Below, in pieces: positions 7,740 to 24,480 of a DNA stretch of 64,000 bases. A program made the position numbers and the translations under genes. The DNA comes from an uncultured delta proteobacterium. Its GTDB lineage: Bacteria > Desulfobacterota > Binatia > Binatales > Binataceae. Location of the stretch: the NCBI GenBank assembly GCA_963815255.1, contig CAWFGH010000012.1:67049-131048 (forward strand). The letters run 5' to 3'. Position 1 is the stretch's first letter. The number at the start of each line of letters is the position of its first letter. The notes under the pieces are model-generated. The model ran no database searches and was not told the origin of the DNA. It saw nothing but the letters and a program-made list of their open reading frames with translations.

Positions 7740-8876
7740 TTAGGTAAACGGGAGCGCTTTGGCGGGCTGCGTGACTCCCTTCTGGCGCGCGCGGATCAGC
7801 AGGTCTCGCAGCTTGGCGGGGTTGATCGGCTTCTTGAACAGCGCGCCCTCCAGCCCTTTCAGCCGGCTGCGCATCAGGATGTGGTCGCGGTCGTAGTTGT
7901 ACGCGGTCATCAGGATGACCGGCAGATGCGGCATCTCTTCCTTCACGCGGGTGTAGAACTCGTAGCCGTCCATTTCGGGCATCACGACGTCGGAGATGAC
8001 CGCGTCGACGCGCACGTTTCGCAGGATGCCGAAGGCGGTGCTGGGACGGATAGCAGTGTAGACCTGGCAGCGCTCGGCGCGCAGCACGTCGGCGAGCGAG
8101 CTCACGACCGAGAGGTCGTCGTCGAGCACCAGCACCGACATACCGGCCAGCGGCCAGTCGCATCCGTTCCTCGACGCGTCGGGCACCGTTGCGCGCTCTT
8201 CAGCCTCGGCGCCACTGGGCGCGAGATCGGCCATCTTCTTGCCCGCCAGGTAGTCGCGGGTTACGTAGATGCCCTTGCGGGTCATCTCGTCGAGCCGGCG
8301 CACGATGCCCTGTACGCGCCGGATACCGGTGCGGATCGAATCGAGCCGCTCGTGCTCGACCACCAGTTCGGCGTCGGAGAGATGGGCCTCGACGCAACGC
8401 GCGAGCAGGTCGAGGTTGTTGGTGATGGCTTCCAGCGGATTGTAGATCTCGTGCGCGAGGCTGACCGCGATTTCCCCGGCCGTCGCGAGCTGCTCGCGAT
8501 GGCGCATCATGCGGATGTCGCGGGCGAAGCCGATGGAACCGGCCACCGTCCCGTCCTTCTCGTAGATGATCGAGCCCGAGATCGCGACCGGGATCAGCTC
8601 GCCCGCCTTGCAGCGGAGCACGGTCTCGAAGTTGGAGATGCGCCCCGAATCCTCGCTGGCGGCGCGCATCGCCTTCATCACGCGGCGCGCTTCCTCCAGC
8701 GAGGGGTAGATGGTGGTGATTTTCTGGCCGACGATTTCCTCGGCGGAGTAGTGCAGATTTTTGCGCGCTCCGTCGTTGTAGAAAATGATCGTGCCGTCAC
8801 GGTCGACCGCGATGATGATGTCAGGGGAGCTTTCGACCAGGCTTTGGAGATAGTTATGGTCCAATGATGACAACAT
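7740..8876 (-). CDS. PAS - HisKA - receiver (REC) protein lacking a recognisable HATPase domain
   Basis: N-terminal PAS (..SSPDIIIAVDRDGTIIFYNDGA..), an H-box (SLAHEIYNPLEAI), and a C-terminal REC (VLVLDDD.., ISDVVMPEMDG, LMTAY, FKKP). No N/G1/G2 boxes lie between HisKA and REC. Confidence 0.8.
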   Translation of the reverse strand: MLSSLDHNYLQSLVESSPDIIIAVDRDGTIIFYNDGARKNLHYSAEEIVGQKITTIYPSLEEARRVMKAMRAASEDSGRISNFETVLRCKAGELIPVAISGSIIYEKDGTVAGSIGFARDIRMMRHREQLATAGEIAVSLAHEIYNPLEAITNNLDLLARCVEAHLSDAELVVEHERLDSIRTGIRRVQGIVRRLDEMTRKGIYVTRDYLAGKKMADLAPSGAEAEERATVPDASRNGCDWPLAGMSVLVLDDDLSVVSSLADVLRAERCQVYTAIRPSTAFGILRNVRVDAVISDVVMPEMDGYEFYTRVKEEMPHLPVILMTAYNYDRDHILMRSRLKGLEGALFKKPINPAKLRDLLIRARQKGVTQPAKALPFT

Positions 8877-9918: not shown

Positions 9919-11229
9919 ATGGCAGAACCTCTTAGCTTCGAAACGCTCGCGAGCCGCGAGTATGTGCTTTCCAGCGCGGAAAATTTCGTTCTGTATGTGT
10001 TGCTGGAAGCGATCGCGCAAGGCACCGGCGGCGCAGGCGGCGGCTCGCGGCTGCCATTGAACCTGGGCCTGGTAATCGACCGCTCGGGTTCGATGTACGA
10101 TGAGCGGCGGCTGGAATTCGTGATCGAGGCGGTCAAATTTCTTGCCGAGAACGTAGCGCCCGAGGACAAGGTTGCGATCGTCGCCTTCGCCGATCGCGCC
10201 AAGGTGATCGTCGGCTCCGACGAGATCCACGACAAGGGTGCCGTGCGGCGCGCGATCGAAGATATCGATCTGCTCGAGATCGGCGGCGGCACCCAGATGG
10301 CGTTGGGGATGCGTGCGGCGATCGATGAGGTCAAGAAAAATCTCGCGCCCAACCGGCTCAACCGCGTCCTGGTGCTCACCGACGGGCAGACTTACGAGGA
10401 GACCGCGTGCATCGATCTCGCCAATCAGAACCGCGATCAGATGTCGTTCTCCGCGATGGGCGTGGGCGTTGAGTTCAACGAGAAGCTGCTGATGCGGATC
10501 TCGCAGGATTCGCACGGCAAGTATCACTTCATCGGCGACCCGGCGGAAATTCCCGGCATCTTCGAAGACGAGCTGGCGGGCCTGCGCGCGGTCAGCGTGC
10601 GCAACGGACGAATCGAAGTCACACTCGCGCAAGGCGTGCAGGTGCGCGAGGCCTTTCGCGCCAGTCCCGAAATTTACTCTCTCGGCGCGCCGCTGGTCGG
10701 CGATGACCGCCATATCAGTTACGAGATCGGCGACCTCGAAGCCGGCGTGCCCGGCTCCGTGCTGCTGACCCTCGTGCTGCCGCCGCGCAAGCCCGGACCG
10801 GTGCGCATCCTGCAATCGAACCTGCGCTACGAGGTGCCGGGCGTTGGCGAACAGAGCCTGGGCCGCGACCTCACTGTCGAGTACACGCTCGACCGCACGC
10901 TCACCGGCAAGGTCAACGGGCGCGTTATGAACCTGGTTGACCAGGTCTCGATCGCCAAGATGCAGTCGCGCGCCGAAGAAGAGCTCAAGGCGGGCAATGT
11001 GGATCGCGCGACGCGTCTTTTGAGCAATGCGATCCAGGGCACCCAGCGCCTGGGCAACGTCAAGGCGACGCAGGCGCTGGTCGGCCTGATGGACCAGGTC
11101 AAGAAAACCCAGACGCTGCAGACCAAGGCGGCCAAGACCACGCTGTTGCAGGCTCAGGCCGTAGTGCGCAAAACCCAGATGCTCGATCCGGACGCTCTGA
11201 AGGATTTTTCCAAACCCGACCAGGGATAA
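9919..11229 (+). CDS. von Willebrand factor type A (vWA) domain protein
   Basis: MIDAS motif LVIDRSGSM, ..VAIVAFADRAKV.., ..GGGTQMALGM.., ..VLVLTDGQT... The C-terminal half is beta-rich and is followed by a helical Thr/Gln/Lys-rich tail. GGAGAG lies 8 nt before the ATG. Confidence 0.85.
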   Translation: MAEPLSFETLASREYVLSSAENFVLYVLLEAIAQGTGGAGGGSRLPLNLGLVIDRSGSMYDERRLEFVIEAVKFLAENVAPEDKVAIVAFADRAKVIVGSDEIHDKGAVRRAIEDIDLLEIGGGTQMALGMRAAIDEVKKNLAPNRLNRVLVLTDGQTYEETACIDLANQNRDQMSFSAMGVGVEFNEKLLMRISQDSHGKYHFIGDPAEIPGIFEDELAGLRAVSVRNGRIEVTLAQGVQVREAFRASPEIYSLGAPLVGDDRHISYEIGDLEAGVPGSVLLTLVLPPRKPGPVRILQSNLRYEVPGVGEQSLGRDLTVEYTLDRTLTGKVNGRVMNLVDQVSIAKMQSRAEEELKAGNVDRATRLLSNAIQGTQRLGNVKATQALVGLMDQVKKTQTLQTKAAKTTLLQAQAVVRKTQMLDPDALKDFSKPDQG

Positions 11230-11300: not shown

Positions 11301-11942
11301 ATGATCAAGTGCAGCGAGTGCGGCTACGAAAATATCGATGGGCTTGACTACTGCGACGGATGCGGCGCGAAGCTGAACGCTGCGGCCCCGGCGCAGGCGG
11401 GCGAGAGCGGCGCTGCCGCGTCCGAAGCTGCCGCGCATCCCGCTCCGGCCGAAGCCGCGGCTGAAGCGCCGGCCGAGGCTCCGGCGACACCGCCTCCATC
11501 CGAAACGCCGACCGGCGAAATCAAGCCGCCCGCCGAGGCGAACGCCGCGGCAGCGGCTGCCGCGCCGGCCGCCGAGGCGCCGGCCGCGGCGGCAGGAGCG
11601 ACGGCACGCGCCAAGCTGCAAGTCGTACGCGGCGGACGCAAGGGCCAGGAGTTCCCGCTCGAGGACGGCAACAACCTCGTCGGTCGATGGGATCCCGAGA
11701 CCGGCGCATTTCCCGAGGTCGACCTCGATCAGGACGATCCCGAGGCCAAGATCTCACGCAAGCACGCGCTGATCCGCTTCGAGGCCGGCAAGATCACGGT
11801 CGAGGATATCGGCAGTCTCAACGGCACCTACGTCAATCGCCAACCGCGCCTGATGCCTGGCAACCCGGTCGAGCTAAAGACGGGTGACGAGATAATTATC
11901 GGCAAAACATTTCTCAAGTTGATCGTCGAGCCGGTTTCCTAG
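11301..11942 (+). CDS. zinc-ribbon + FHA domain protein
   Basis: N-terminal CSECGYEN..YCDGCG (CxxC..CxxC), an Ala/Pro/Glu-rich linker, and a C-terminal FHA (..NLVGRWD..EVDLDQDDPEAKISRKHALIRF..ITVEDIGSLNGTYVN..). Confidence 0.85.
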   Translation: MIKCSECGYENIDGLDYCDGCGAKLNAAAPAQAGESGAAASEAAAHPAPAEAAAEAPAEAPATPPPSETPTGEIKPPAEANAAAAAAAPAAEAPAAAAGATARAKLQVVRGGRKGQEFPLEDGNNLVGRWDPETGAFPEVDLDQDDPEAKISRKHALIRFEAGKITVEDIGSLNGTYVNRQPRLMPGNPVELKTGDEIIIGKTFLKLIVEPVS

Positions 11943-12045: not shown

Positions 12046-14004
12046 ATGAAACCGGGCGAACAGCTTCCCGCCGGTCAGATGCTCGATGGCCGTTACCGCG
12101 TGCACAAGGTGCTCGGCCAGGGCGGGATGGGACGGGTCTATCTCGCCAACGACACGCGGTTAGCTAACCGGCCCGTCGCCGCCAAGGAAATGATCATCGG
12201 CGACGGGATCGCGGAGAAGAAGGCGATCGAGGACTTCGCGCGCGAGGCCCGCGTGCTCGCCGCGCTCGCGCATCCGGGCATCCCCAACGTCATCGACTAC
12301 TTCGCCGAGAACAACCGCCACTACCTCGTGATGGAGTTCGTGGCGGGCGGCGATTTGCAGGGCATGCTCGACAAGCTGGGGCCCAAAGGCAAGTTGCCCG
12401 AGACGCGGGTGCTGCGATGGGCGCGCCAGATGCTCGACGTGCTCAGTTTTCTGCACAGCCAGACGCCGCCGATCATCTATCGCGACCTCAAGCCCGGCAA
12501 CATCATGATCGACAAGGATGGCCGTGCGATGCTGATCGATTTTGGCATCGCACGATTCCTGCCGCCGGGCGGCCGCGGCACGCAAATCGGCTCGGTCGGC
12601 TACGCGCCGCCCGAGCAGTACATGGGCAAGGTCGAGCCGCGCTCGGACCTCTATTCGCTGGCCGCCACGATGCATCATCTGCTGAGCGGCCGCGACCCGC
12701 AGCTCGAGCCGCCATTCAGCTTTCCGCCGCTGCGCGATCTGAGCCCCGAAGTTTCGATAAAGACCGCCGAGGTCGTGATGCGCGCGCTCGACAAGGACGT
12801 TGAAAAACGCCCGGCCTCGGCGCGCGACATGATGCATGCGCTGCCCGACCCCGGTCCCGAGCCCAAGGCCTCGGGCGTGCTGGGTTCCAGCGCCGGCAAT
12901 GCCGCGCCGATCGCCTCGATGCGGACCGTGGTGCTCGACCGTCCACAATCAGTGGGCTCGCCGGGTTTGAGCGTTCAGCCGCCCCCCGCAAGCGGCAGGC
13001 GTCTTGGCGCGACGCCATCCGTGGGCAGCGGGGGCGCGTCCGCGAATCCGTCGCTCACGAATATGCCGACGGTGGTTTTGAGCCGCCCTGGAGCTTCCGG
13101 ATTTGCGGCACCTGCCGAATCTGCCGGCAGTTCCGGAGCTACCGGCAAGTCCGGAAAGTCCCGAAGTGCTGGGCTTGCCGGATCCGCCGGACCTATCTCC
13201 GCCGCGCCTCCCGCTCCGTCACGATTGGCAGCGCCGCCGACACTCACGTCGAGCACGGCGGCGGGCGTCGCCAAGGTGAAGTCGCTGGCGCGGTCGGCGC
13301 GGGCGATGGCGCAGCGGGCGGCGGCGAAAATAGAAGCACAACAATCGCTGTTCACGAGACCGGCTGAAGTCCCTTCTGTCTCCTCCACCGCGAAGACGCA
13401 GGACTTGACTGGCAAGGCCAAGGCGGTGGCGCAGGCGGCGCCAGTCGCCGCACCCTCGAAGAGCGAATCGATCTCGAAAAACGTGCGCGCTCAAAATGTT
13501 CCCTCGGGTACAAATGCGGGGTCATCAAAGGCCGCGGCGTCGGCGGGCAAGCCGTCGGTCGCATCTTCGAGCATGTCTTCTTCGAACATTGGTTCTTCGA
13601 GCATGCCTTCCGGGGCGAGGCCCGCGATCGGTAAGAAGGGCGCGCAAAACGGTGCCGCGCCGATGACCTCGAATGCGCAAACCGAAGCGGGCGCATGGTT
13701 AATCGCGAGCGGCAGCGCGCCGCGTTTCGGGTTGATACAGAGCCGCACGATTGTCGGACGCGCGCTCGGCGGCGAGGAGCCCGATATCGATCTCGGCCAG
13801 CTCAAGGGCATCGCCGATCGCGTGTCGCGCCGCCATGCCGAGATCATCAAGCACGGCACGGAGTATTTCATCCGCGATCTTGGGAGCCTCAACGGCACCT
13901 ACATCACCGGCCGCGGGCGGCTCGGACGCGATCAACTCTACAAGCTCAAGGATCGCGACCAAGTGGTGTTCGGCAGTGCTAAACTGGAGTTTCGAAAGGG
14001 CTAA
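12046..14004 (+). CDS. Hanks-type Ser/Thr protein kinase with C-terminal FHA domain
   Basis: Kinase motifs GQGGMGRVY, VAAKEM, IIYRDLKPGNIMI, DFGIAR and GYAPPEQ. A Ser/Ala-rich linker of about 300 aa follows. C-terminal FHA (..TIVGRA..VSRRHAEIIKHGTEYFIRDLGSLNGTYI..). Confidence 0.9.
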   Translation: MKPGEQLPAGQMLDGRYRVHKVLGQGGMGRVYLANDTRLANRPVAAKEMIIGDGIAEKKAIEDFAREARVLAALAHPGIPNVIDYFAENNRHYLVMEFVAGGDLQGMLDKLGPKGKLPETRVLRWARQMLDVLSFLHSQTPPIIYRDLKPGNIMIDKDGRAMLIDFGIARFLPPGGRGTQIGSVGYAPPEQYMGKVEPRSDLYSLAATMHHLLSGRDPQLEPPFSFPPLRDLSPEVSIKTAEVVMRALDKDVEKRPASARDMMHALPDPGPEPKASGVLGSSAGNAAPIASMRTVVLDRPQSVGSPGLSVQPPPASGRRLGATPSVGSGGASANPSLTNMPTVVLSRPGASGFAAPAESAGSSGATGKSGKSRSAGLAGSAGPISAAPPAPSRLAAPPTLTSSTAAGVAKVKSLARSARAMAQRAAAKIEAQQSLFTRPAEVPSVSSTAKTQDLTGKAKAVAQAAPVAAPSKSESISKNVRAQNVPSGTNAGSSKAAASAGKPSVASSSMSSSNIGSSSMPSGARPAIGKKGAQNGAAPMTSNAQTEAGAWLIASGSAPRFGLIQSRTIVGRALGGEEPDIDLGQLKGIADRVSRRHAEIIKHGTEYFIRDLGSLNGTYITGRGRLGRDQLYKLKDRDQVVFGSAKLEFRKG

Positions 14005-14021: not shown

Positions 14022-16220
14022 GTGATGATAACGTGCCCCGAGTGCGGTCAGGCGGCTGCCGACGACGCCAGATTTTGTGACCGCTGCGGCCAGGGACTGG
14101 CGAAGTCAGCCGCGCCCAGGGTCGAATACGCGATCGCGGCGCTGGAGCCGGGTGCTTTAGTGCGTGGCGAATTCCGGATCGTCGAGGTGATCGGCCGCTC
14201 GACGATGGAAAATCGCTATCGGGCCGAGCGGACGCGCAATGGCGCCGGTCCCGAGCGCGTGCAGTTGCGTGAGCGGCCACGCCCGACGCCCGCCGAGAGC
14301 GCGCACGCTGAGAGCGCGCACGAGGAAGCGCCGGCCGGCTCGTCGGGCAACCAAGCGTCGCCGCACGAAGATCCGTCCGGGCCTCATGCCAAGACCGCCG
14401 AACTGAAACGTCCCGCCGCGCCATCGCCCGCCGATACAACCACTGCCGCGAGCGCTACTGCGGCCGGCGTCGAGAGCGCATCGGAGGTGGCCGCGCGTGC
14501 AGGCTCCAACGGCGCCAGCGTCGCGCCCCAGCCAGCCGCTGCCGCGCCTGATGCGCAAGAGACTGCAGCAGCCGTCAACGAGGGTGGGCATAACGAGGTC
14601 GCGCAGGCGCCGGCCGCAGGCGCGCGGGCCTCGGGCGCGACCGAGCCGCTGACCTTGGATGAAACGATGGCGCGTAGCGAATCCGCGCCGGCGACGCATC
14701 ATGAGTCATCGGCCGCGTCGCCGCCCGCTCCCGAAGCCGCGGCGAGCGAGAGCGCCGCTAAAGAGAGCCAGGTGCGCGACGACTCGCGCGAAAATTTAAG
14801 CGAAAATTCACGCGAAAATGTGCAAGACCTGGGCGATCTGTTCGGGCGCGTACTCGCGCTTTCGCTCACCGTCAACCATCCGGCCTTCCAGCGCGCGACC
14901 GAGGGCTTCGCCGACGACGGGCGCGTGTACCTGGTCTATCCCGACGAGCCGCTCGTCCTGCTTTCGCAGCGCCGCGGCGGACTCAAGATGAGCGAGGGCG
15001 AGGCGGTCGGAATCGCAATCCAGGTTTGCCAGGCGGTGTCGTTCCTGAATCGGCGCGGCCTGCGCCTCAACGACATCTGCCCGCAATCGATCGCGTATGG
15101 TCCCGGCGGACGAGTGAAGCTCCTGGGACTCGACTACGTCAGCAACGACAACGAGCTTCAGAGCGATCCAATTCCCAACGACGGTTACACCGCGCCCGAG
15201 GTTTATCGCGGCAAACGCGTCGACAAACGCGCGGACGTGTTCTCGATTGGTGCGCTGCTGTACAGTTGTCTTACGGGCGAACGGCTCGAATCCGAGAGCT
15301 GGCGCGAAGAGGCGGGTCCCGTGCGTTTCTATCCGCCGCACGTGGTCTCGCCCGAACTGGAGCAGGTGGTGCGCCGCGCGCTGCTGTTCGATCCGCAGGG
15401 GCGATGGCCGACCGTGGATGCGCTCAAGGCGGAGCTGGTCAGGCTGAATGCGACGATACGGATTCGCGCCGCCGCGATGACCGACGTCGGGATGGTCCGC
15501 GAGCATAACGAAGACGCGGCGATGGCGGTCGAGTTTGTGCGCCAGAGCCTGGTCGATCCGTCCGAGAACTATCTCTACGTGGTCGCCGACGGGATGGGCG
15601 GTGCGGAAGCGGGCGAGGTCGCCAGCGCAATTGCTGTCGGCGCGATTCGTAACTATGTTGATAGCGGGCTCGGCAGCGCGGAAGCCCAAAATCCGAGTCA
15701 ACTGTTAACGGCGGCGCTCGAGGAGGCCAACCGCAAGATCATCGAGTACCAGGCGGCGCATCCCGAGTCCCGCGGCATGGGCTCGACCGCCGTGGCGGTG
15801 CTTATCGTGCCGCCGGAAGGAGCTGTGGCATGGGTTGGCGACAGCAGAGTCTACTTGTCCGACGCTTCGGGCCTCCGCCAATTGACCCGCGATCATTCTC
15901 TAGTGCAGCGGCTTATTGAAATCGGCCAGATCACGCCCGAAGAGGCGCGCCATCACGAACACAAAAACGTGATCACGCGCTCCCTCGGCGCGCGCCAGAG
16001 CGGACCGGCTGGCGCCGAGGGGATGCCGCTTCGGCTCAAGCGCGGCGACCGCGTGATGCTCTGCAGCGACGGGCTGACCGCTCATGTAGAGGACAAGACT
16101 ATCGGCGAAGTCCTGCGCCGCCATGACGATCCGTATGCGGCGGCGCGCGAACTGGTGGTGGCTGCGAATGCGGGGGGTGGAACAGATAACGTCACGGTTA
16201 TTGTTGTGTTTGCTGACTGA
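14022..16220 (+). CDS. zinc-ribbon / degenerate kinase-like (pseudokinase) / PP2C phosphatase fusion protein
   Basis: N-terminal CPECG..FCDRCG. The kinase-like fold lacks the G-loop (IGRSTMENRY), has Arg where the VAIK Lys is expected (VQLRER), has LRLNDICPQS in place of HRDLKPxN, and GLD in place of DFG, but keeps GYTAPEV. C-terminal PP2C (REHNEDA, VADGMGGAEAGE, VGDSRVY, CSDGL, GGTDNVTVIVV). The start could be GTG 14022 or ATG 14025. Confidence 0.85.
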   Translation: MMITCPECGQAAADDARFCDRCGQGLAKSAAPRVEYAIAALEPGALVRGEFRIVEVIGRSTMENRYRAERTRNGAGPERVQLRERPRPTPAESAHAESAHEEAPAGSSGNQASPHEDPSGPHAKTAELKRPAAPSPADTTTAASATAAGVESASEVAARAGSNGASVAPQPAAAAPDAQETAAAVNEGGHNEVAQAPAAGARASGATEPLTLDETMARSESAPATHHESSAASPPAPEAAASESAAKESQVRDDSRENLSENSRENVQDLGDLFGRVLALSLTVNHPAFQRATEGFADDGRVYLVYPDEPLVLLSQRRGGLKMSEGEAVGIAIQVCQAVSFLNRRGLRLNDICPQSIAYGPGGRVKLLGLDYVSNDNELQSDPIPNDGYTAPEVYRGKRVDKRADVFSIGALLYSCLTGERLESESWREEAGPVRFYPPHVVSPELEQVVRRALLFDPQGRWPTVDALKAELVRLNATIRIRAAAMTDVGMVREHNEDAAMAVEFVRQSLVDPSENYLYVVADGMGGAEAGEVASAIAVGAIRNYVDSGLGSAEAQNPSQLLTAALEEANRKIIEYQAAHPESRGMGSTAVAVLIVPPEGAVAWVGDSRVYLSDASGLRQLTRDHSLVQRLIEIGQITPEEARHHEHKNVITRSLGARQSGPAGAEGMPLRLKRGDRVMLCSDGLTAHVEDKTIGEVLRRHDDPYAAARELVVAANAGGGTDNVTVIVVFAD

Positions 16221-18580
16221 TGGCGAATACGGGCACATCCGGCGCTCTGTCTAACGAGCCGCTCGCCTCCGGCACGGTTCTGCAAAATCGCTACGAGATC
16301 GAGCGCCTGCTCGGCGGCGGCGGGATGGGGATGGTCTACCTGGCGCATGACCATCGCCTGGCCAACCGCCCCTGCGCGGTCAAGGAGATGGTCGACCACT
16401 TCATCGACCAGCAGCAGCGGATCGAAGCCAACGATTACTTCGCCCGCGAAGCCGACACGCTCGCGCAGCTCAAGCACGCCGCCATCCCCGCGATCACCGA
16501 CCGCTTCGACGATCAAAACCGCCACTACCTGGTGATGGAGTACGTCGAGGGCCGCAACCTCGAAGAAGAGATTGCGGCACGCGGCGGCCCACTGCCCGAA
16601 GGCCTGATAATCGACATCGCGCGCCAGCTTTGCGACGTGCTCGCCTACCTGCACGGTTCCACGCCGCCCGTGGTCTACCGTGACATGAAGCCGTCGAACG
16701 TGATGCTGACGCCCAAGGGACGGGTGGTGCTGGTCGACTTCGGCATCGCGCGCCTGTTCAAAAGCGCGCGCAAGGGCACGATGATCGGCACGCTCGGCTT
16801 CGCGCCGCCCGAGCAATACCAGGGCGTGGTCGATCCGCGGAGCGACATCTATTCGCTCGGTGCGACGCTGCACTACGTCCTCACCGGACGCGACCCCGAG
16901 AAATTTCCGCCCTTCAGCTTTCCCCCGATACGCGACCTGCGCCCTGAGGTCTCGACCAACCTCGCGGGCGCAATCGATCACGCGCTCGCCTACCAGGCCG
17001 ACGCGCGACCCGCGAGCATCCAGGATTTCCGCGACATGCTGCTCTACGGCAAGGGCCTGGGCGAAAGCCGCGGAGCGCCGGGGGTCAGCTCGCACGGCGG
17101 CACCGCCGGCCTCGCGCTGCCGCCCGACGTCGCCGAGGCGATCGCGCCGCCGCGTCGCCGCCGTCGCCGCAAGCATCGCGCGGTGGCCTTGTTGGCATTT
17201 TTCGGGATCGTGGCCGGCGGCGCATTCGGCGCCACCTACGTCTATAACAACCCGCAATTGCAGCAGCGCCTCGGCGTCAAATCGTTCGTCGACAGCCTGC
17301 CCTGGAAGGTCCAGGAGCGCCTGAACTCCGCCGAGACTCATCCGCTGGATTTCCAGCGCATGACGCTCCAACTCTCAACTCGCTCGGGCACGCCGCTCAG
17401 TTCGCCGCGCGCGAGCTTCACCAATATCGAGTTGGCCAACAACCAGTATTTGCAGTGGAACGCCTCGTTCGCGAACCGCCTGGCCGGGCTCAAGGGACAG
17501 GACGAGAAGATTGAGGCGCGCTTCTTTTCACCCTCGGGCCTGCAAATCGCCTCCAGCACCGCGAGCCGGTTTGTGGGACCGGGAGAGAGCACGGCCGATT
17601 TCAGCGGAGTTGCACTGATGCCCGATCTCGGCGCATTGCCGGCGGGCAATTACAAGGTCGGTATCTACGTCAACGACCAGCCGATCTCCGACCAGGCGTT
17701 CGCCGTCAGCCAGGATGTCACCGCGCTGAGGGCGGCCGAGGCCGCCAACGAAGCCGAGAGGGCGCGCGAGACGGCGGACAAGGCCAAGGCGCATGACGAG
17801 GCCGAGCGCCTCGCGATGCTCGAGGCGCGCCGGCGCAAGCCCCTTCAATTAGCCGGAATCGAATTCGTCAACAGCACGAAGTCCGGCACGCCTCTGGCGG
17901 GGCCGGCGACGACCTTCAACGCGACCAAGGTGCTGTTCGTCAACTGGCGCATAACCTTCGAGAATCGGCTTTACAATCTCGATACCGGCCAATACCGGGT
18001 TGACGCCGCGTATCTCGCGCCCGACGGGCACACCTTAGGCAGCGTCGACGACATCCGCATCGTGCCGCCGTCGTCGCGGAGCGCGACCTTCAGCGGGAGG
18101 GTCGGTAACTCGGCCGGCGGCGCATTTCTGCCCGGGCAGTACACGGTCGATTTTTATCTCAACGGGCAAAAAATAGCGCAGAAGAATTTTCGCGTGCTGG
18201 CGGATACGTCGCAGCCCTATCCGGCCTCGCTCGGTAGCGCGTCGGGCGCGGCCAGCGGCGGCAGCACCGGAGCGATCGACGTTCCGACGCTCGCCACCGG
18301 ACGTATCGACGGGCTGGCGGGGGCGACCAACATCCCGGTGGAGTTGCGGTTGCGCCCGCAGCCCAACGGCTTCCTGCACGGAGAGATGGTGATTCATGAG
18401 GCCGGCTACGGCGCCACGCCGATCCAGGGCTTTATTCGCGGCAACCACGTCGTCTTCCAGGTGCCATACGGCGCCAAGACGTTGAACTTTGACGGCCGGC
18501 GCACTTCCGATCAGCTTAACGGCACTTTCTTTTCAACGCCTACCGGCGAGAGCGGTACCTGGAACACCGTCACTAATTGA
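16220..18580 (+). CDS. transmembrane Hanks-type Ser/Thr protein kinase with repeat-containing extracytoplasmic domain
   Basis: GGGGMGMVY, CAVKEM, VVYRDMKPSNVM, DFGIAR, GFAPPEQ. An RRRRRRK stop-transfer segment is followed by a TM helix (AVALLAFFGIVAGGAFGATYVY). The roughly 420-aa C-terminal region has an internal duplication. The start overlaps the upstream stop (TGATG). Confidence 0.9.
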   Translation: MANTGTSGALSNEPLASGTVLQNRYEIERLLGGGGMGMVYLAHDHRLANRPCAVKEMVDHFIDQQQRIEANDYFAREADTLAQLKHAAIPAITDRFDDQNRHYLVMEYVEGRNLEEEIAARGGPLPEGLIIDIARQLCDVLAYLHGSTPPVVYRDMKPSNVMLTPKGRVVLVDFGIARLFKSARKGTMIGTLGFAPPEQYQGVVDPRSDIYSLGATLHYVLTGRDPEKFPPFSFPPIRDLRPEVSTNLAGAIDHALAYQADARPASIQDFRDMLLYGKGLGESRGAPGVSSHGGTAGLALPPDVAEAIAPPRRRRRRKHRAVALLAFFGIVAGGAFGATYVYNNPQLQQRLGVKSFVDSLPWKVQERLNSAETHPLDFQRMTLQLSTRSGTPLSSPRASFTNIELANNQYLQWNASFANRLAGLKGQDEKIEARFFSPSGLQIASSTASRFVGPGESTADFSGVALMPDLGALPAGNYKVGIYVNDQPISDQAFAVSQDVTALRAAEAANEAERARETADKAKAHDEAERLAMLEARRRKPLQLAGIEFVNSTKSGTPLAGPATTFNATKVLFVNWRITFENRLYNLDTGQYRVDAAYLAPDGHTLGSVDDIRIVPPSSRSATFSGRVGNSAGGAFLPGQYTVDFYLNGQKIAQKNFRVLADTSQPYPASLGSASGAASGGSTGAIDVPTLATGRIDGLAGATNIPVELRLRPQPNGFLHGEMVIHEAGYGATPIQGFIRGNHVVFQVPYGAKTLNFDGRRTSDQLNGTFFSTPTGESGTWNTVTN

Positions 18581-18703: not shown

Positions 18704-18788
18704 GCTCAGCATCTATATTCAGCATCAATCCACGCGGCGCGCTTGAACGCATCAGCGCCACGCGCAATGCTTTGTGACCGGACCCGCT

Positions 18789-19661
18789 ATGGCGAGTAAC
18801 GTCTCTCAGGAAAAGCTGCTCTTTTACGCCGCCGCGGGCGGCTTGGGCGGGTTCGCGGCCTGGGGCGTGCAGGAGTCGGTGGCCGGTATCCGCAACTATC
18901 TTGTGCGCGACGCGGCGACGGGCCTGGTCATCGGCCTGTTCATCTGCGCCTTTCTCGCTTCGATCGAGGCGCTTAGCGTGGGCCAATGGCGCCAGGCTCT
19001 GCGCGGGATCAAGAGCGGCGCGATCTTCGGCGCAATCGGCGGCGCCGCGGGCCTGATCGGCGGAGAGATCCTGTTCGACATTCTGCACGGCTTTGTCGGG
19101 CGCGTAGTCGGATGGGCCCTGCTGGGAGTGGCGGTAGGGTTGGGCGTCGGATGGGCGTCGGGATCGGCCGCGCGCAAGCGCAACGGCGCGCTCGGCGGGC
19201 TTATCGGCGGCGCGCTGGGCGGCCTCTGCTATCAGACCCTGACCACCACTTTTCCGCAATTCTTCGGACGCGCGATCGCGATCATCGTGCTCGGCATGCT
19301 GATCGGATTTTTCATCGGACTGGTCGGCGAGTTGCTTAAGCGCGGCTGGCTGATGGTGATCCGCAGCCAGAGCCGCAACGCGCGCGAGGGACGCGAATAT
19401 CCGCTGACCAAGCCGGTCACGATCATCGGACGCGCCGAGGAGAGCGATATCGGCCTCTTTGGCGATCAGGCCGTGCTGGCCCATCACGCGATCATCCGGC
19501 GCGAGGGGCGCGACTTCGTCGTCAGCCCGGCCGGCGGCGGGCAGGTGTTGATCAACCGCCGCCCGGTGACGGGCCGCCAGGCGTTACGCAGCGGCGACCG
19601 CGTCGAAGTAGGAGGGACACTCTTTATTTTTCGCGAACGCGCACAAGCCGCGCAGAGTTGA
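18789..19661 (+). CDS. multi-pass glycine-zipper membrane protein with C-terminal FHA domain
   Basis: Five to six Gly-rich hydrophobic segments (GGLGGFAAWGV, GAIFGAIGGAAGLIGG, VGWALLGVAVGLGVGWASG, GGLIGGALGGL, IIVLGMLIGFFIGLVG), then an FHA (..VTIIGRAEESDIGLFGDQAVLAHHAIIRREGRDFVV..). The ORF opens at GTG 18774; ATG 18789 was chosen. Confidence 0.8.
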   Translation: MASNVSQEKLLFYAAAGGLGGFAAWGVQESVAGIRNYLVRDAATGLVIGLFICAFLASIEALSVGQWRQALRGIKSGAIFGAIGGAAGLIGGEILFDILHGFVGRVVGWALLGVAVGLGVGWASGSAARKRNGALGGLIGGALGGLCYQTLTTTFPQFFGRAIAIIVLGMLIGFFIGLVGELLKRGWLMVIRSQSRNAREGREYPLTKPVTIIGRAEESDIGLFGDQAVLAHHAIIRREGRDFVVSPAGGGQVLINRRPVTGRQALRSGDRVEVGGTLFIFRERAQAAQS

Positions 19662-21744: not shown

Positions 21745-24480
21745 ATGCCGCTCGAAGAATACCGGCGCAAACGCAGCGCCGAGCGCACGCCCGAGCCATT
21801 CGGCGAATCGCCTCGGGTGGGAGGCCGGAGCGGCGGGATGTTCGTCGTGCAGAAGCACGCGGCCACCAGGCTCCATTACGATTTCCGTCTCGAGATGGAA
21901 GGTGTGCTTCGCTCGTGGGCAATTCCCAAGGGACCGTCGCTCAATCCCGCGGACAAACGGCTCGCCGTGATGGTCGAGGACCATCCGATCGAGTACGGCG
22001 ACTTCGAAGGCATCATCCCTGAGGGCAACTATGGCGCCGGCGAGGTGATCGTGTGGGACCGCGGCGTGTATCGCGTGACCGATCCGCCGGACGACGTGGC
22101 CGGCGCCGTGCGCGCGGGCAAGCTCGATATCGAGCTGTTCGGATTCAAGCTGAGAGGCGGCTACGCGATGGTGCGGACGAGCGGGCGCAATCCGCACTCA
22201 CGTCAGGCCGGTAACGAAAAATCCCAGTGGCTGCTGATCAAGCGCAACGACGGATTTGCCTCGGCCGATATCGATATCGTGGAAAGCCGGCCGCGCTCGG
22301 TGCTATCCGGTCTCACGCTCCAGGAGCTGCCGGGCGCATCCGGCCTCGCTTCGGGCATCGTCGCCGAACTCCAGAGGCTGCGCGCGCCACAACTCAAGGG
22401 GCCGCTTGCGCCCGCGCAATTCCCATTCGCGCTCGCGAGGCTGGTGACCGAGCTGGTCGAAGGCGCCGAGTGGCTATACGAGATCAAATACGACGGCGTG
22501 CGCGCGCTCGCGATCCGCGACGGCAGCGCGGTGCGGATTTTCGGCCGCAGCGGTCTAGAGGCCACCGCCAACTATCCCGAAGTCGTGCTCGCGCTCAGCA
22601 AACTGCCGTTTGCGCGCTTCGTGCTCGACGGTGAGATTATCGGGTTCGATCCCGACGGACGGCCGAGCTTTCAGGCCTTGCAGAGGCGTATCCAGGCGCA
22701 CGATCGCGGCCAGATCGCGGCGATGGCGCTCGCTCATCCGGCTCCGTACTACGTTTTCGATCTATTGGCCTTCGATCGCTTCGATCTCCGCGGCCTCGCT
22801 CTCGAAACGCGTAAGGAATTGTTGCGGCTGATGATCCGGGACGAGGGACTGCTCCGCTATTCCGACTTTCACACCGGCAACGGGCGCGCGTTTTACGACG
22901 CGGTCGCTGAGCTCGGGCTGGAGGGCGTGATCGCCAAGCGCGTGAACTCCCCGTACCAGGCCGGCCGCGGAGGCGGATGGCTCAAAATCAAGTGCCCGCG
23001 CGTCGGGCAGTTCGTGATCGGTGGATGGACCGAGCCGGGCGGGTCGCGCACGCATTTCGGCGCGCTGCTCGCCGGCCAGTACGAGGCGCCGGGCGTGCTG
23101 CGCTTCGTTGGGCGCGTCGGCACCGGCTTTGACGACGAGCGGTTGCGCACGATCGCCGCGAAGCTGCGCGAGCGCGCGGTCGACGCGTCGCCATTTCGGC
23201 GACGCCGCGAAGGCGAACCGGTGATTCCAGCTGGCGCGCATTTCTGCAAGCCGGATTTGGTATGCGAGGTGCGATTCACTGAATGGACCGAAGACGGCGT
23301 GCTGCGCAATCCAAGCTTCCTCGGCCTGGTGGCCGACGCGGATCCGGCCCAATGTGCATATCAGGGCCCGGGCGCACCAGGCGCCGAGGCGGCAGACGAT
23401 CTTGACGCAATCGTATCTTCACCTCCCCTTGTCCAAGGGGAGGTCGCCGCGAAGCCTCGCGAGCGGCGGGAGAGGTCGGAATTCGAGGGTCTGAATCGTG
23501 AAAGCCACAATGACGTCCCCCCAACCCTCTCGTTGTCCAAGGAGAGGGGAAAACAGTTGCAGGTGAAACCCGCCGTTCACGAATCGCATCCCGTGCAAAT
23601 CACGCACGCGGACAAGGTTTTCTGGCCGGCGGAGGGCTATACCAAGGGTGACTTGATTGAATACTACGAGACTATCGCGCCGTGGATGCTGCCCTACTTG
23701 AAAGATCGCCCGGTGATGCTGACGCGCTATCCCGACGGTATCGAGGGCAAGAGCTTTTTCCAGAAAGACGCGCCGGGTTACGTGCCGCAGTGGATCCGCC
23801 GCGTGAAGGTCTATTCCGAGGATTCCCAACGCGAGATTTCCTACTTCATTCTGGAGAGCGCCGAGGCTCTCAAATACATCGCCAACATGGGCGCGATCCC
23901 GATCCATATCTGGTCATCGCGGGTGCCGAACCTCGGCAGTCCCGACTGGCTATTGTTCGATATCGATCCCAAGGGTTCGACCACAACTCACGCCGTGCGA
24001 GTCGCGCAGGAGACGGCCGCGGTGCTGCGGAACGCCGGGATGCGACCATATGTGAAGACCTCGGGGCAGGCCGGAATTCACGTAGTGGTCGGGCTGAAAA
24101 CGGGTTACACCTATGAGCAGGCGCGGATGTTCTCCGAGGCGGTGGCGCGAGTGGTGGTGGCGCGGATGCCGGATATAGCCACCGTGCTGCGCACTCCGGC
24201 CGCGCGCAAGGGTAAGGTTTATATCGATTATCTGCAACTGGGACAGGGCAAAACGATCGCAGCGCCGTTCGCGGTGCGTCCGCAGCCCGGCGCGCCGGTA
24301 TCCGCGCCGCTTAAATGGAACGAGCTAAGAAGCGACCTCGACCCGCGCAAGTTCAATATCAAGACGATGCCGCCGCGGATGAAACGTCTGGGCGAGGATC
24401 CGTTCCTCGGCGCGCTAACGGATCAGCAGGAGATCGAGCCGGCGCTGCCGAAGGTCGAATCGATGCTGCACGAGAAATAG
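21745..24480 (+). CDS. ligD: multidomain ATP-dependent DNA ligase LigD (phosphoesterase - ligase - polymerase/primase)
   Basis: N-terminal 3'-phosphoesterase (FVVQKHAATRLHYDFRLEMEGVLRSWAIPKGPS). Ligase core (EIKYDGVRAL adenylation Lys motif). C-terminal LigD polymerase domain (..ITHADKVFWP..YYETIAPWMLPYLKDRPVMLTRYPDGI..). Divergent from ku. Confidence 0.93.
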   Translation: MPLEEYRRKRSAERTPEPFGESPRVGGRSGGMFVVQKHAATRLHYDFRLEMEGVLRSWAIPKGPSLNPADKRLAVMVEDHPIEYGDFEGIIPEGNYGAGEVIVWDRGVYRVTDPPDDVAGAVRAGKLDIELFGFKLRGGYAMVRTSGRNPHSRQAGNEKSQWLLIKRNDGFASADIDIVESRPRSVLSGLTLQELPGASGLASGIVAELQRLRAPQLKGPLAPAQFPFALARLVTELVEGAEWLYEIKYDGVRALAIRDGSAVRIFGRSGLEATANYPEVVLALSKLPFARFVLDGEIIGFDPDGRPSFQALQRRIQAHDRGQIAAMALAHPAPYYVFDLLAFDRFDLRGLALETRKELLRLMIRDEGLLRYSDFHTGNGRAFYDAVAELGLEGVIAKRVNSPYQAGRGGGWLKIKCPRVGQFVIGGWTEPGGSRTHFGALLAGQYEAPGVLRFVGRVGTGFDDERLRTIAAKLRERAVDASPFRRRREGEPVIPAGAHFCKPDLVCEVRFTEWTEDGVLRNPSFLGLVADADPAQCAYQGPGAPGAEAADDLDAIVSSPPLVQGEVAAKPRERRERSEFEGLNRESHNDVPPTLSLSKERGKQLQVKPAVHESHPVQITHADKVFWPAEGYTKGDLIEYYETIAPWMLPYLKDRPVMLTRYPDGIEGKSFFQKDAPGYVPQWIRRVKVYSEDSQREISYFILESAEALKYIANMGAIPIHIWSSRVPNLGSPDWLLFDIDPKGSTTTHAVRVAQETAAVLRNAGMRPYVKTSGQAGIHVVVGLKTGYTYEQARMFSEAVARVVVARMPDIATVLRTPAARKGKVYIDYLQLGQGKTIAAPFAVRPQPGAPVSAPLKWNELRSDLDPRKFNIKTMPPRMKRLGEDPFLGALTDQQEIEPALPKVESMLHEK
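23422..23549. repeat. copy of the intergenic palindromic repeat family A, embedded in frame in the ligD ligase-polymerase linker
   Basis: cctccccttgtccaaggggaggtcgccgcgaagcctcgcgagcggcgggagaggtcgg closely matches the reverse complement of 29178-29240 (cctctccttgtccaagtccaaggagaggccgccgcgagcatcgcgagcggcgggagaggtcag). A second palindrome, ccctctcgttgtccaaggagaggg, is also present. Confidence 0.75.

Follow-up and report, generated by a model that had tools for sequence, protein, structure and literature searches.

The 64,000-nucleotide window analysed here, from contig CAWFGH010000012.1 of the Binataceae assembly GCA_963815255.1, contains at positions 14025 to 16220 of the forward strand a gene whose 731-residue product joins a predicted N-terminal zinc ribbon (ZnR), a degenerate protein kinase fold and a PP2C phosphatase. 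The open reading frame spans 14022 to 16220 and opens with GTG 14022, one codon upstream of ATG 14025. A first-pass annotation of this DNA had begun the protein at that GTG; because the homologues begin with MITCPECG, we place the start at ATG 14025, from which the residues of the fusion protein are numbered, and the stop codon is the TGA at 16218 to 16220. A single chain comprises four parts: a four-cysteine zinc ribbon, a Hanks-type kinase fold, an acidic disordered insert within the N-lobe of that fold, and a PP2C of the Stp1/PstP type. The same annotation had proposed this ZnR, kinase-like and PP2C architecture in one reading frame; the frame exists and all the sequence strings quoted in its support are present in the translation. 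An AlphaFold2 model of the fusion protein, built on 64 homologues, has a predicted template modelling score (pTM) of 0.46.

The kinase fold is divided in two by the insert. Strands β1 to β3 of the N-lobe occupy residues 45 to 85 (14157 to 14279, forward strand) and were delimited by the modelled strands, by alignment with active kinases and by invariant residues. AlphaFold2 places these strands at residues 50-58, 63-71 and 74-85, with a mean pLDDT per block of 80 to 91. Helix αC and the C-lobe follow at residues 267 to 477 (14823 to 15455, forward strand) and are confidently modelled. This segment was assigned from the Pfam Pkinase profile, an alignment with PknB and a Foldseek comparison. Pfam Pkinase (PF00069) matches residues 282 to 469 with 41.8 bits against a cut-off of 31.7 (E 1.1e-10), over profile positions 53-259 only. 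A comparison with the PDB identifies PknB as the best solved relative of the middle region (E ~1e-12), and Foldseek superposes the AlphaFold2 model on PknB with a template modelling (TM) score of ~0.65 and a root-mean-square deviation of 2.5-3.3 Å. StkP aligns from the N-lobe onward once the insert is spliced out. Structure prediction, the superposition on PknB and the above-threshold Pkinase match thus bear out the kinase fold claimed at first pass.

The active site of this fold is largely degraded. Alignment with PknB and with the neighbouring active kinases confirmed three replacements that had been read by eye: GRSTMENRY stands in place of the glycine-rich loop GxGxxG, where the neighbouring kinases have GQGGMGRVY and GGGGMGMVY; the β3 lysine of the VAIK motif is an arginine (VQLR; R82, invariant in the 64 sequences); and DFG is replaced by GLD, in which G368 is invariant and a nearby aspartate lies two positions past the site of the DFG aspartate. 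The αC segment, DLFGRVLALSL, has no glutamate, in a register that is approximate in the MAFFT alignment of the N-lobe. For the catalytic loop, H-R-D-v-K-p-a-N of PknB aligns with L-N-D-i-C-p-q-S, with the lysine replaced by Cys352 and the asparagine by Ser355; the HRD aspartate is kept as D350 (LND) and is invariant in the 64 sequences. The earlier statement that all catalytic elements had been lost is therefore right for the glycine-rich loop, the β3 lysine, the αC glutamate, the catalytic lysine and asparagine and the DFG aspartate, and wrong for the HRD aspartate. Three landmarks of the fold are retained: APE, helix αF and the arginine of subdomain XI. The last of these had been sought in RRALLFDP; by the PknB alignment and by its invariance it is the arginine of QGRW. 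The residues that substitute for the canonical active site are invariant in the 64 sequences, namely E62, N63, Y65, R82, N349, D350, C352, P353, S355 and G368. Because both the VAIK lysine and the DFG aspartate are lost, the kinase-like domain is, as judged from its sequence, a pseudokinase by the usual criterion.

Mean identities to the query are 81% for the zinc ribbon (25-26 residues), 60% for the N-lobe strands (38-42 residues), 28% for the insert (118-215 residues), 79% for αC and the C-lobe (211-212 residues) and 80% for the PP2C (252-257 residues). The C-lobe, free of insertions and deletions, is thus as conserved as the PP2C, and the residues of the dead site are invariant, which indicates purifying selection equal to that acting on the phosphatase. 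The pseudokinase is therefore neither a relic nor an assembly artefact.

The PP2C (PPM) domain occupies positions 15456 to 16217 (forward strand) and is of the Stp1/PstP/tPphA type. Pfam PP2C matches residues 492 to 724 with 54.6 bits (cut-off 20.3), and the NCBIfam model Stp1_PP2C_phos (NF033484) matches residues 486 to 729 at 237.9 against a cut-off of 230, covering profile positions 1-231 of 232. The best solved relatives in the PDB are tPphA, PppA, PstP and Stp1, with E values from 2e-40 (tPphA) to 6e-31, and PDB matches within this phosphatase family extend to 2e-27. Foldseek matches of the AlphaFold2 model are PstP (1txo), tPphA (2xzv and 5iti), Stp1 (2pk0) and PppA (6jkv), at target-normalised TM scores of 0.75-0.81, the scores for PstP and tPphA being 0.77-0.80. 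Model confidence falls below a pLDDT of 50 over residues 478 to 512. Alignment with tPphA shows that the phosphate-binding arginine and the metal-binding motifs are intact (RxxNED, ADGMGG, GDSR, CSDGL and GGTDN). R492, D497, D522, G523, D606, D682, D721 and N722 are invariant among 44 diverse fusions of ~30% identity, in line with the earlier observation that the metal-binding aspartates had been retained. Because the phosphate- and metal-binding residues are all present, and invariant down to ~30% identity, the phosphatase is predicted to be active and Mn/Mg-dependent. PRK14559 (NF011149) was considered as a family for the whole protein and rejected: it scores 137.2 bits against a cut-off of 374, and only the PP2C part matches (profile positions 369-629 of 642). 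In ten distant fusions, likewise, the PP2C part alone matches this model.

At the other end of the chain, the predicted zinc ribbon (residues 1 to 26; 14025 to 14102, forward strand) has the pattern CPxC-x10-CxxC. Three Pfam models, Zn_ribbon_3, Zn_Ribbon_1 and DZR, match it slightly under their cut-offs (25.9 against 27, 23.7 against 25, and 22.6 against 27.3 bits), the Zn_ribbon_3 match of 25.9 bits lying at residues 2 to 26. The four cysteines, C4, C7, C18 and C21, are invariant among the 64 homologues.

The gene lies within an operon of signalling genes, all on the forward strand. Upstream are a gene for a VWA protein with an intact metal-ion-dependent adhesion site (MIDAS; DRSGS…T…D), at 9919 to 11229 and recognised by Pfam VWA and by sequence; a gene at 11301 to 11942 for a protein in which a zinc ribbon, an Ala/Pro-rich linker and an FHA domain follow each other in a FraH-like layout (ZnR-FHA; Pfam FHA and Zn_Ribbon); and a gene at 12046 to 14004 for an active Ser/Thr kinase of the Hanks type that carries an FHA domain at its C-terminus (STK-FHA; Pfam Pkinase, 134.9 bits, and FHA). 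STK-FHA carries the motifs GQGGMG, AAKEM, YRDLKPGN and DFG, and its gene ends 20 nucleotides upstream of ATG 14025. Downstream come the genes for a second active Ser/Thr kinase of the Hanks type, which has a single transmembrane helix and an extensive C-terminal region (STK-TM; 16220 to 18580; Pfam and sequence), and for a polytopic membrane protein whose C-terminal domain is FHA (18774 to 19661; Pfam FHA/Yop-YscD_cpl and sequence). Synteny was counted over 56 long loci of related genomes. The order VWA, ZnR-FHA, STK-FHA, fusion gene and STK-TM is found in 56 of 56, and the membrane FHA protein is adjacent in 52.

In the sequence TGATG at 16218 to 16222, the stop codon of the fusion gene and the start codon of STK-TM have one base in common. 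The first-pass annotation had taken this overlap to imply stoichiometric co-expression. The overlap is present; among 89 related loci for which the gap was measured, however, it recurs in only 10, which with one exception belong to the closest relatives, and we have discarded it as a feature of the family. Tight linkage is general, with a gap to the downstream kinase gene of at most 30 nucleotides (overlaps included) in 79 of the 89.

Several further observations concern the neighbouring genes. The zinc ribbons of the phosphatase (14025 to 14102) and of the ZnR-FHA protein (11301 to 11378) are much alike, MITCPECG…FCDRCG and MIKCSECG…YCDGCG respectively, with the common pattern MIxCxECG…CDxCG; judging by this resemblance, they may form a common localisation or assembly module. 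Beyond its transmembrane helix, the C-terminal half of STK-TM (~450 residues) has no convincing Pfam family; a weak PapC_N match in two stretches hints, on sequence grounds, that an undescribed sensor domain is repeated within it. In the third FHA protein, at 18774 to 19661, a polytopic membrane region rich in glycine precedes the FHA domain; this protein is among the most conserved products of the cluster, with 61-100% identity across loci. Elsewhere in the window, the reverse-strand frame at 7740 to 8876 has PAS and receiver domains and a weak HisKA match (23.1 bits against 26.9), with no HATPase_c detected by Pfam, and may encode an incomplete or atypical hybrid histidine kinase. A full-length LigD, with 3'-phosphoesterase, ligase and primase-polymerase domains, is encoded at 21745 to 24480 (forward strand) and is syntenic in 9 of the 56 loci, in closer relatives only.

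The insert that divides the N-lobe lies between β3 and αC at residues 86 to 266 (14280 to 14822, forward strand). It is acidic (isoelectric point 4.7), rich in Ala, Ser, Glu and Pro, and was delimited by composition and by pLDDT, which is below 50 over residues 96 to 264. An insert of this kind had been described at first pass, at a length of about 210 residues; it measures 181. Among homologues its length ranges from 118 to 215 residues at the low mean identity given above. Within this variable region stands a short linear motif, EDPSGPHAKTAELK (14367 to 14408, forward strand), with Thr124 and a leucine at +3. Its consensus is [E/D]DPxGPx[A/S][K/R]-T-x-[E/D]-L, or in a narrower form EDPxGPxAKTA(E/D)LK, and G119, P120, A122, T124 and L127 do not vary across the alignment of 64 sequences. 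The great majority of full-length Binataceae loci have the strict form or an AKT..L form; four loci that the first motif pattern missed have the motif itself or something close to it (ARTAEL, SKTQEL and AKTAEL). Many FHA domains prefer pT-x-x-(I/L/V), and Thr124 with its leucine at +3 fits this preference. From its conservation, the motif is a candidate phospho-acceptor and FHA-binding site; as an alternative, it might be an acidic ligand for the VWA MIDAS. Two sister Binatia loci outside the Binataceae, L081 (8001-10550) and L082 (8001-9623), have the same operon without the insert, the motif and the STK-FHA gene, and the sister Binatia fusion protein P0127 has 574 residues. The insert and the FHA-bearing kinase thus seem to have been acquired or lost in step, which fits a joint working of the two.

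Searches for relatives of the fusion protein in a large protein collection yielded more than 120 clusters that contain full-length orthologues, at 57-99% identity. The named clusters are annotated as Stp1/IreP PP2C or as "PrpC / serine/threonine protein kinase", and their source is Candidatus Binataceae or Binatales. Among species-representative genomes, 159 encode a relative; the 80 among the matches listed are all Binataceae or other Binatia metagenome-assembled genomes, many under older delta-proteobacterial labels. The reading frame is unbroken in nearly all full-length related loci from independent assemblies. An exhaustive profile search with residues 267 to 731 added ~40 clusters, formed at 50% identity, whose members are 31-48% identical and span both the kinase-like and the PP2C parts. 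Among 44 aligned distant members, Pfam recognises PP2C in all 44, Pkinase in 37 and zinc-ribbon models in about half. In all of these aligned members except P0204 the catalytic-loop lysine is absent and the HRD and DFG positions are variously degenerate, the HRD aspartate being usually absent. P0204 (580 residues) fuses a true kinase to PP2C and keeps GxGxxG, VAVK, HRD and DFG intact. P0153 (859 residues) unites an active kinase with a pseudokinase, a PP2C and zinc ribbons in one chain; this Rosetta-stone relative lends indirect support, by analogy, to docking between the pseudokinase part and a kinase. Sources of the distant fusions include Blastocatellia (Acidobacteriota; Blastocatellia bacterium AA13) and Ardenticatenales (Chloroflexota), and the fusion gene of the latter adjoins VWA, ZnR-FHA and kinase genes.

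PP2C genes on plasmids of Nostocales and other cyanobacteria and in Deinococcus give matches that reach into the C-lobe of the pseudokinase; tblastn matches on the Nostocales plasmids cover 86-92% of the query. In the two such PP2C proteins that were examined, one from a cyanobacterial plasmid and one from Deinococcus, Pfam detects PP2C and no Pkinase or zinc ribbon. The cyanobacterial one of the two is encoded on plasmid pNsp_h of Nostoc sp. ATCC 53789 (L096:637-2454), where its gene adjoins a kinase gene.

The Deinococcus protein is DRA0334 of Deinococcus radiodurans (WP_010889593.1; locus L095:6272-8122, NZ_OV024759.1 240269-242119), encoded in a chromosome II operon that comprises VWA (DRA0331), kinase (DRA0332), ZnR/FHA (DRA0333) and PP2C (DRA0334) genes. 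BLASTP aligns it to the fusion protein with 34% identity over 398 residues (E 3e-38), from fusion residue 341 to the end of the PP2C, and hhalign of the whole proteins gives 99.9%. Its N-terminal module alone aligns to fusion residues 326 to 476 (hhalign 95.9%, E 5.9e-9), and all 41 matches of this module in the PDB are protein kinases, the best with an E value of 0.001. Pfam finds neither FHA nor Pkinase in the module. DRA0334 is thus homologous to the fusion protein from the kinase C-lobe through the PP2C and has the same kinds of partner, a VWA protein, a membrane Ser/Thr kinase and a FraH-like ZnR/FHA protein. It differs in having no detectable zinc ribbon or kinase N-lobe, and a disordered N-terminus takes the place of the N-lobe insert.

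A preprint describes residues 210 to 368 of DRA0334 as a "KI-FHA" docking domain (bioRxiv 10.64898/2026.01.23.701218). There, the PP2C-only construct was the most active, the N-terminal module restraining the PP2C; the module modulated the kinases RqkA and DRA0332, and the FHA protein DRA0333 competed with it. The module stimulated autophosphorylation of RqkA, whereas the kinase of its own operon, DRA0332, was not stimulated (10.64898/2026.01.23.701218). As is predicted for the fusion protein, the N-terminal module is non-catalytic, and it is reported to tune both PP2C activity and kinase interaction. The C-lobe alignment, the exclusively kinase matches in the PDB and the lack of a Pfam FHA match lead us to reread this module: its sequence suggests that the "KI-FHA" looks like a degenerate kinase lobe and not like an FHA domain. 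By analogy, the DRA0334 data lend preliminary and indirect support to a docking or regulatory role of the homologous module in the fusion protein.

With restrained confidence, we lean towards a reading in which the active PP2C is the off-switch of a membrane-associated Hanks-kinase/FHA/VWA operon, and in which the zinc ribbon and the dead kinase form a non-catalytic docking and regulatory module. The pseudokinase, perhaps together with the zinc ribbon, would dock on the two true kinases of the operon or on their complexes, which would bring the PP2C near the phosphorylated activation loops of the kinases and near their phosphorylated substrates. While unengaged, the pseudokinase would restrain the PP2C. 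Within the flexible insert, Thr124 might be phosphorylated by the partner kinases; an FHA domain, one of three in the operon, might then read phospho-Thr124, recruit the phosphatase and so establish negative feedback. We infer the binding partners, the phosphorylation of Thr124 and the direction of regulation in this scheme. We count in its favour that the gene for the kinase-like domain invariably lies beside, or between, genes for active Hanks kinases and FHA proteins. The first-pass annotation had proposed that a pseudokinase could dock onto the true kinases nearby or onto their substrates and so target the phosphatase, a proposal that finds partial support; it had overlooked the threonine motif and the FHA partners. 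The conserved threonine motif, taken with three FHA partners, suggests phospho-dependent recruitment over simple docking of kinase on kinase.

Several points weigh against this scheme. At a pTM of 0.46, the AlphaFold2 model does not allow the packing of the domains or the state of the ATP pocket to be interpreted. The invariant residues of the dead pocket (ENRY, R82 and ND-C-S) seem, from the sequences, to exceed what a passive scaffold would need. What is reported for DRA0334 stems from a preprint and concerns a 34%-identical relative with no detectable zinc ribbon or N-lobe, whose module was read there as an FHA domain. The preference of FHA domains for pTxxL is drawn from general knowledge of these domains, and the co-occurrence of insert and STK-FHA may stem from a single evolutionary event.

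The pseudokinase might instead be mainly allosteric, forming heterodimers with the true kinases and activating them while the PP2C stays autoinhibited until FHA proteins compete, so that the protein would act as a push-pull regulator. This account overlaps with the off-switch reading, and we consider it rather unlikely. It would explain why the PP2C-only form of DRA0334 was the most active, why its module stimulated RqkA autophosphorylation and why the FHA protein altered the outcome, although DRA0332, the kinase of the same operon, was unstimulated in that preprint. The strong conservation of the kinase-like fold and the constant adjacency of kinase genes also agree with it. By eye, however, the position that matches PknB Leu33, which we take to belong to the back-to-back dimer interface, is not conserved and is not hydrophobic in the fusion protein (TRN, against TRL in the neighbouring kinases). 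Another possibility is that the kinase-like domain is not dead and has WNK-type atypical nucleotide binding, SelO/SidJ-type chemistry or a small-molecule ligand that gates the phosphatase. The retention of D350, the invariance of E62, N63, Y65, R82, N349, C352, S355 and G368 in the 64 sequences and the aspartate of GLD two positions after the DFG-Asp site are all compatible with such an activity; yet five of the six canonical elements are gone (glycine-rich loop, β3 Lys, αC Glu, catalytic-loop Lys/Asn and DFG Asp). In the distant fusions, moreover, the same positions vary freely and the HRD aspartate is usually absent, which speaks against an alternative active site conserved throughout the wider family, and we regard this explanation as very unlikely.

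The neighbourhood also recalls the TerY-P triad, which consists of VWA, PP2C and STK-ZnR proteins (PMC11090510), and the fusion protein could be the phosphatase of a similar anti-phage or stress-defence module. Adjacent VWA, PP2C and Ser/Thr kinase genes, zinc ribbons and a weak vWA-TerF-like match speak for it. That match, at 24.1 bits, is nevertheless below its cut-off of 29.4; PADLOC has no match for the VWA and FHA proteins or for the PP2C domain, the two kinases and the kinase-like region of the fusion protein matching generic kinase models only; and the stable context of the operon, present in all 56 long loci, fits a core-genome cluster better than a variable island. We consider a defence role highly improbable. 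Membership in TerY-P itself was rejected, as there is no TerY-like VWA and no kinase with a C-terminal zinc ribbon (the kinases have an FHA domain, or a transmembrane helix and a C-terminal region). It is scarcely credible, finally, that the kinase-like region is a functionless remnant of a decaying fusion or an artefact of assembly or gene calling. A decayed derivative is conceivable given the true kinase–PP2C fusion P0204, but the frame is intact in nearly all loci, the C-lobe is conserved like the PP2C without insertions or deletions and the degenerate motifs are invariant; these conservation data effectively refute that explanation.

Beyond this locus, we think it probable that ZnR–pseudokinase–PP2C proteins are a widespread, unrecognised class of phosphatases in which a dead kinase, and not an FHA domain, recognises kinases, the "KI-FHA" of DRA0334 being a misread C-lobe. 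In our judgement that class also probably spans Binatia, Acidobacteriota and Chloroflexota, while Deinococcus and plasmids of cyanobacteria have counterparts that are more degenerate. It is quite unlikely that this wider reading holds jointly with both of two further proposals, namely that the dead-pocket residues of the Binataceae (ENRY, R82 and ND-C-S) form a ligand or non-canonical catalytic site that gates the phosphatase, and that phospho-threonine and FHA domains provide feedback.

Bacteria have few phosphatases for many Hanks kinases, and the specificity of their PP2C enzymes is largely unexplained. If the off-switch reading is right, a degenerate kinase copy used as the targeting handle of a phosphatase would be one concrete route to PP2C specificity, and the protein would be to bacteria what pseudokinase scaffolds are to eukaryotes and KAPP is to plants. 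Members of the family are numerous and well conserved, their partners are defined (one VWA protein, two kinases and three FHA proteins) and there is a single candidate phosphosite, which makes the proposal testable with recombinant proteins. The docking module of DRA0334 deserves re-examination as a kinase-like fold. The advance is incremental, with no new principle, and the host belongs to an uncultured soil lineage.

Some elements of this architecture are already known. The bSTK Atlas (bioRxiv 10.1101/2025.01.12.632604) describes seven families of bacterial pseudokinases, CP1, DYD, ActPs1-3, DLHK and GLW. Its definition of a pseudokinase, a PF00069-type fold that has lost the VAIK lysine and the DFG aspartate, which also covers the MviN pseudokinase, applies to the fusion protein. 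The change from lysine to arginine resembles ActPs2, and the retention of the HRD aspartate together with loss of the DFG aspartate and of the HRDxxxxN asparagine resembles DLHK; the term PP2C does not occur in the main text of the Atlas (bioRxiv 10.1101/2025.01.12.632604). Architectures that combine PP2C with Pkinase or with zinc ribbons are found in domain surveys (PMC1262709, BMC Genomics 2005; PMC12088040, PLoS One 2025), and the 2025 survey took the kinase of PP2C and Pkinase proteins as possibly active. Neither survey reports a loss of catalytic motifs in these fusions (PMC1262709, PMC12088040). The Aravind-lab paper on conflict systems mentions inactive kinases only in vWA-effector contexts. 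Neither a pseudokinase–PP2C fusion nor a ZnR–pseudokinase–PP2C family, its split N-lobe or the insert motif is described in the searchable literature, a weak negative as most subscription journals lie outside it. The domain combination itself is already in databases and surveys.

Among known systems, TerY-P resembles the present operon in that genes for VWA, PP2C, kinase and zinc-ribbon proteins lie close together. In the operon, unlike in TerY-P, the zinc ribbons are on the phosphatase and an FHA protein and not on the kinases, there are three FHA proteins, and the distribution is that of a core genome. PstP of M. tuberculosis, tPphA of T. elongatus, Stp1 of S. agalactiae and S. aureus and PppA of P. 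aeruginosa belong to the same catalytic family; these are single-domain or membrane-anchored enzymes, whereas the fusion protein adds an N-terminal zinc ribbon and a kinase fold. The fusion gene also shares a genomic habit with them, since phosphatase genes lie beside cognate kinase and FHA genes in the fhaA-fhaB-pstP-…-pknA-pknB and Fha1-PpkA-PppA clusters. Plant KAPP (kinase-associated protein phosphatase), a KI-FHA domain followed by a PP2C, likewise carries a non-catalytic kinase-recognition module N-terminal to its phosphatase (10.64898/2026.01.23.701218). The docking module of KAPP is a true FHA domain, whereas the fusion protein has a degenerate kinase fold in that position and FHA domains are available to it in trans, from three partners.

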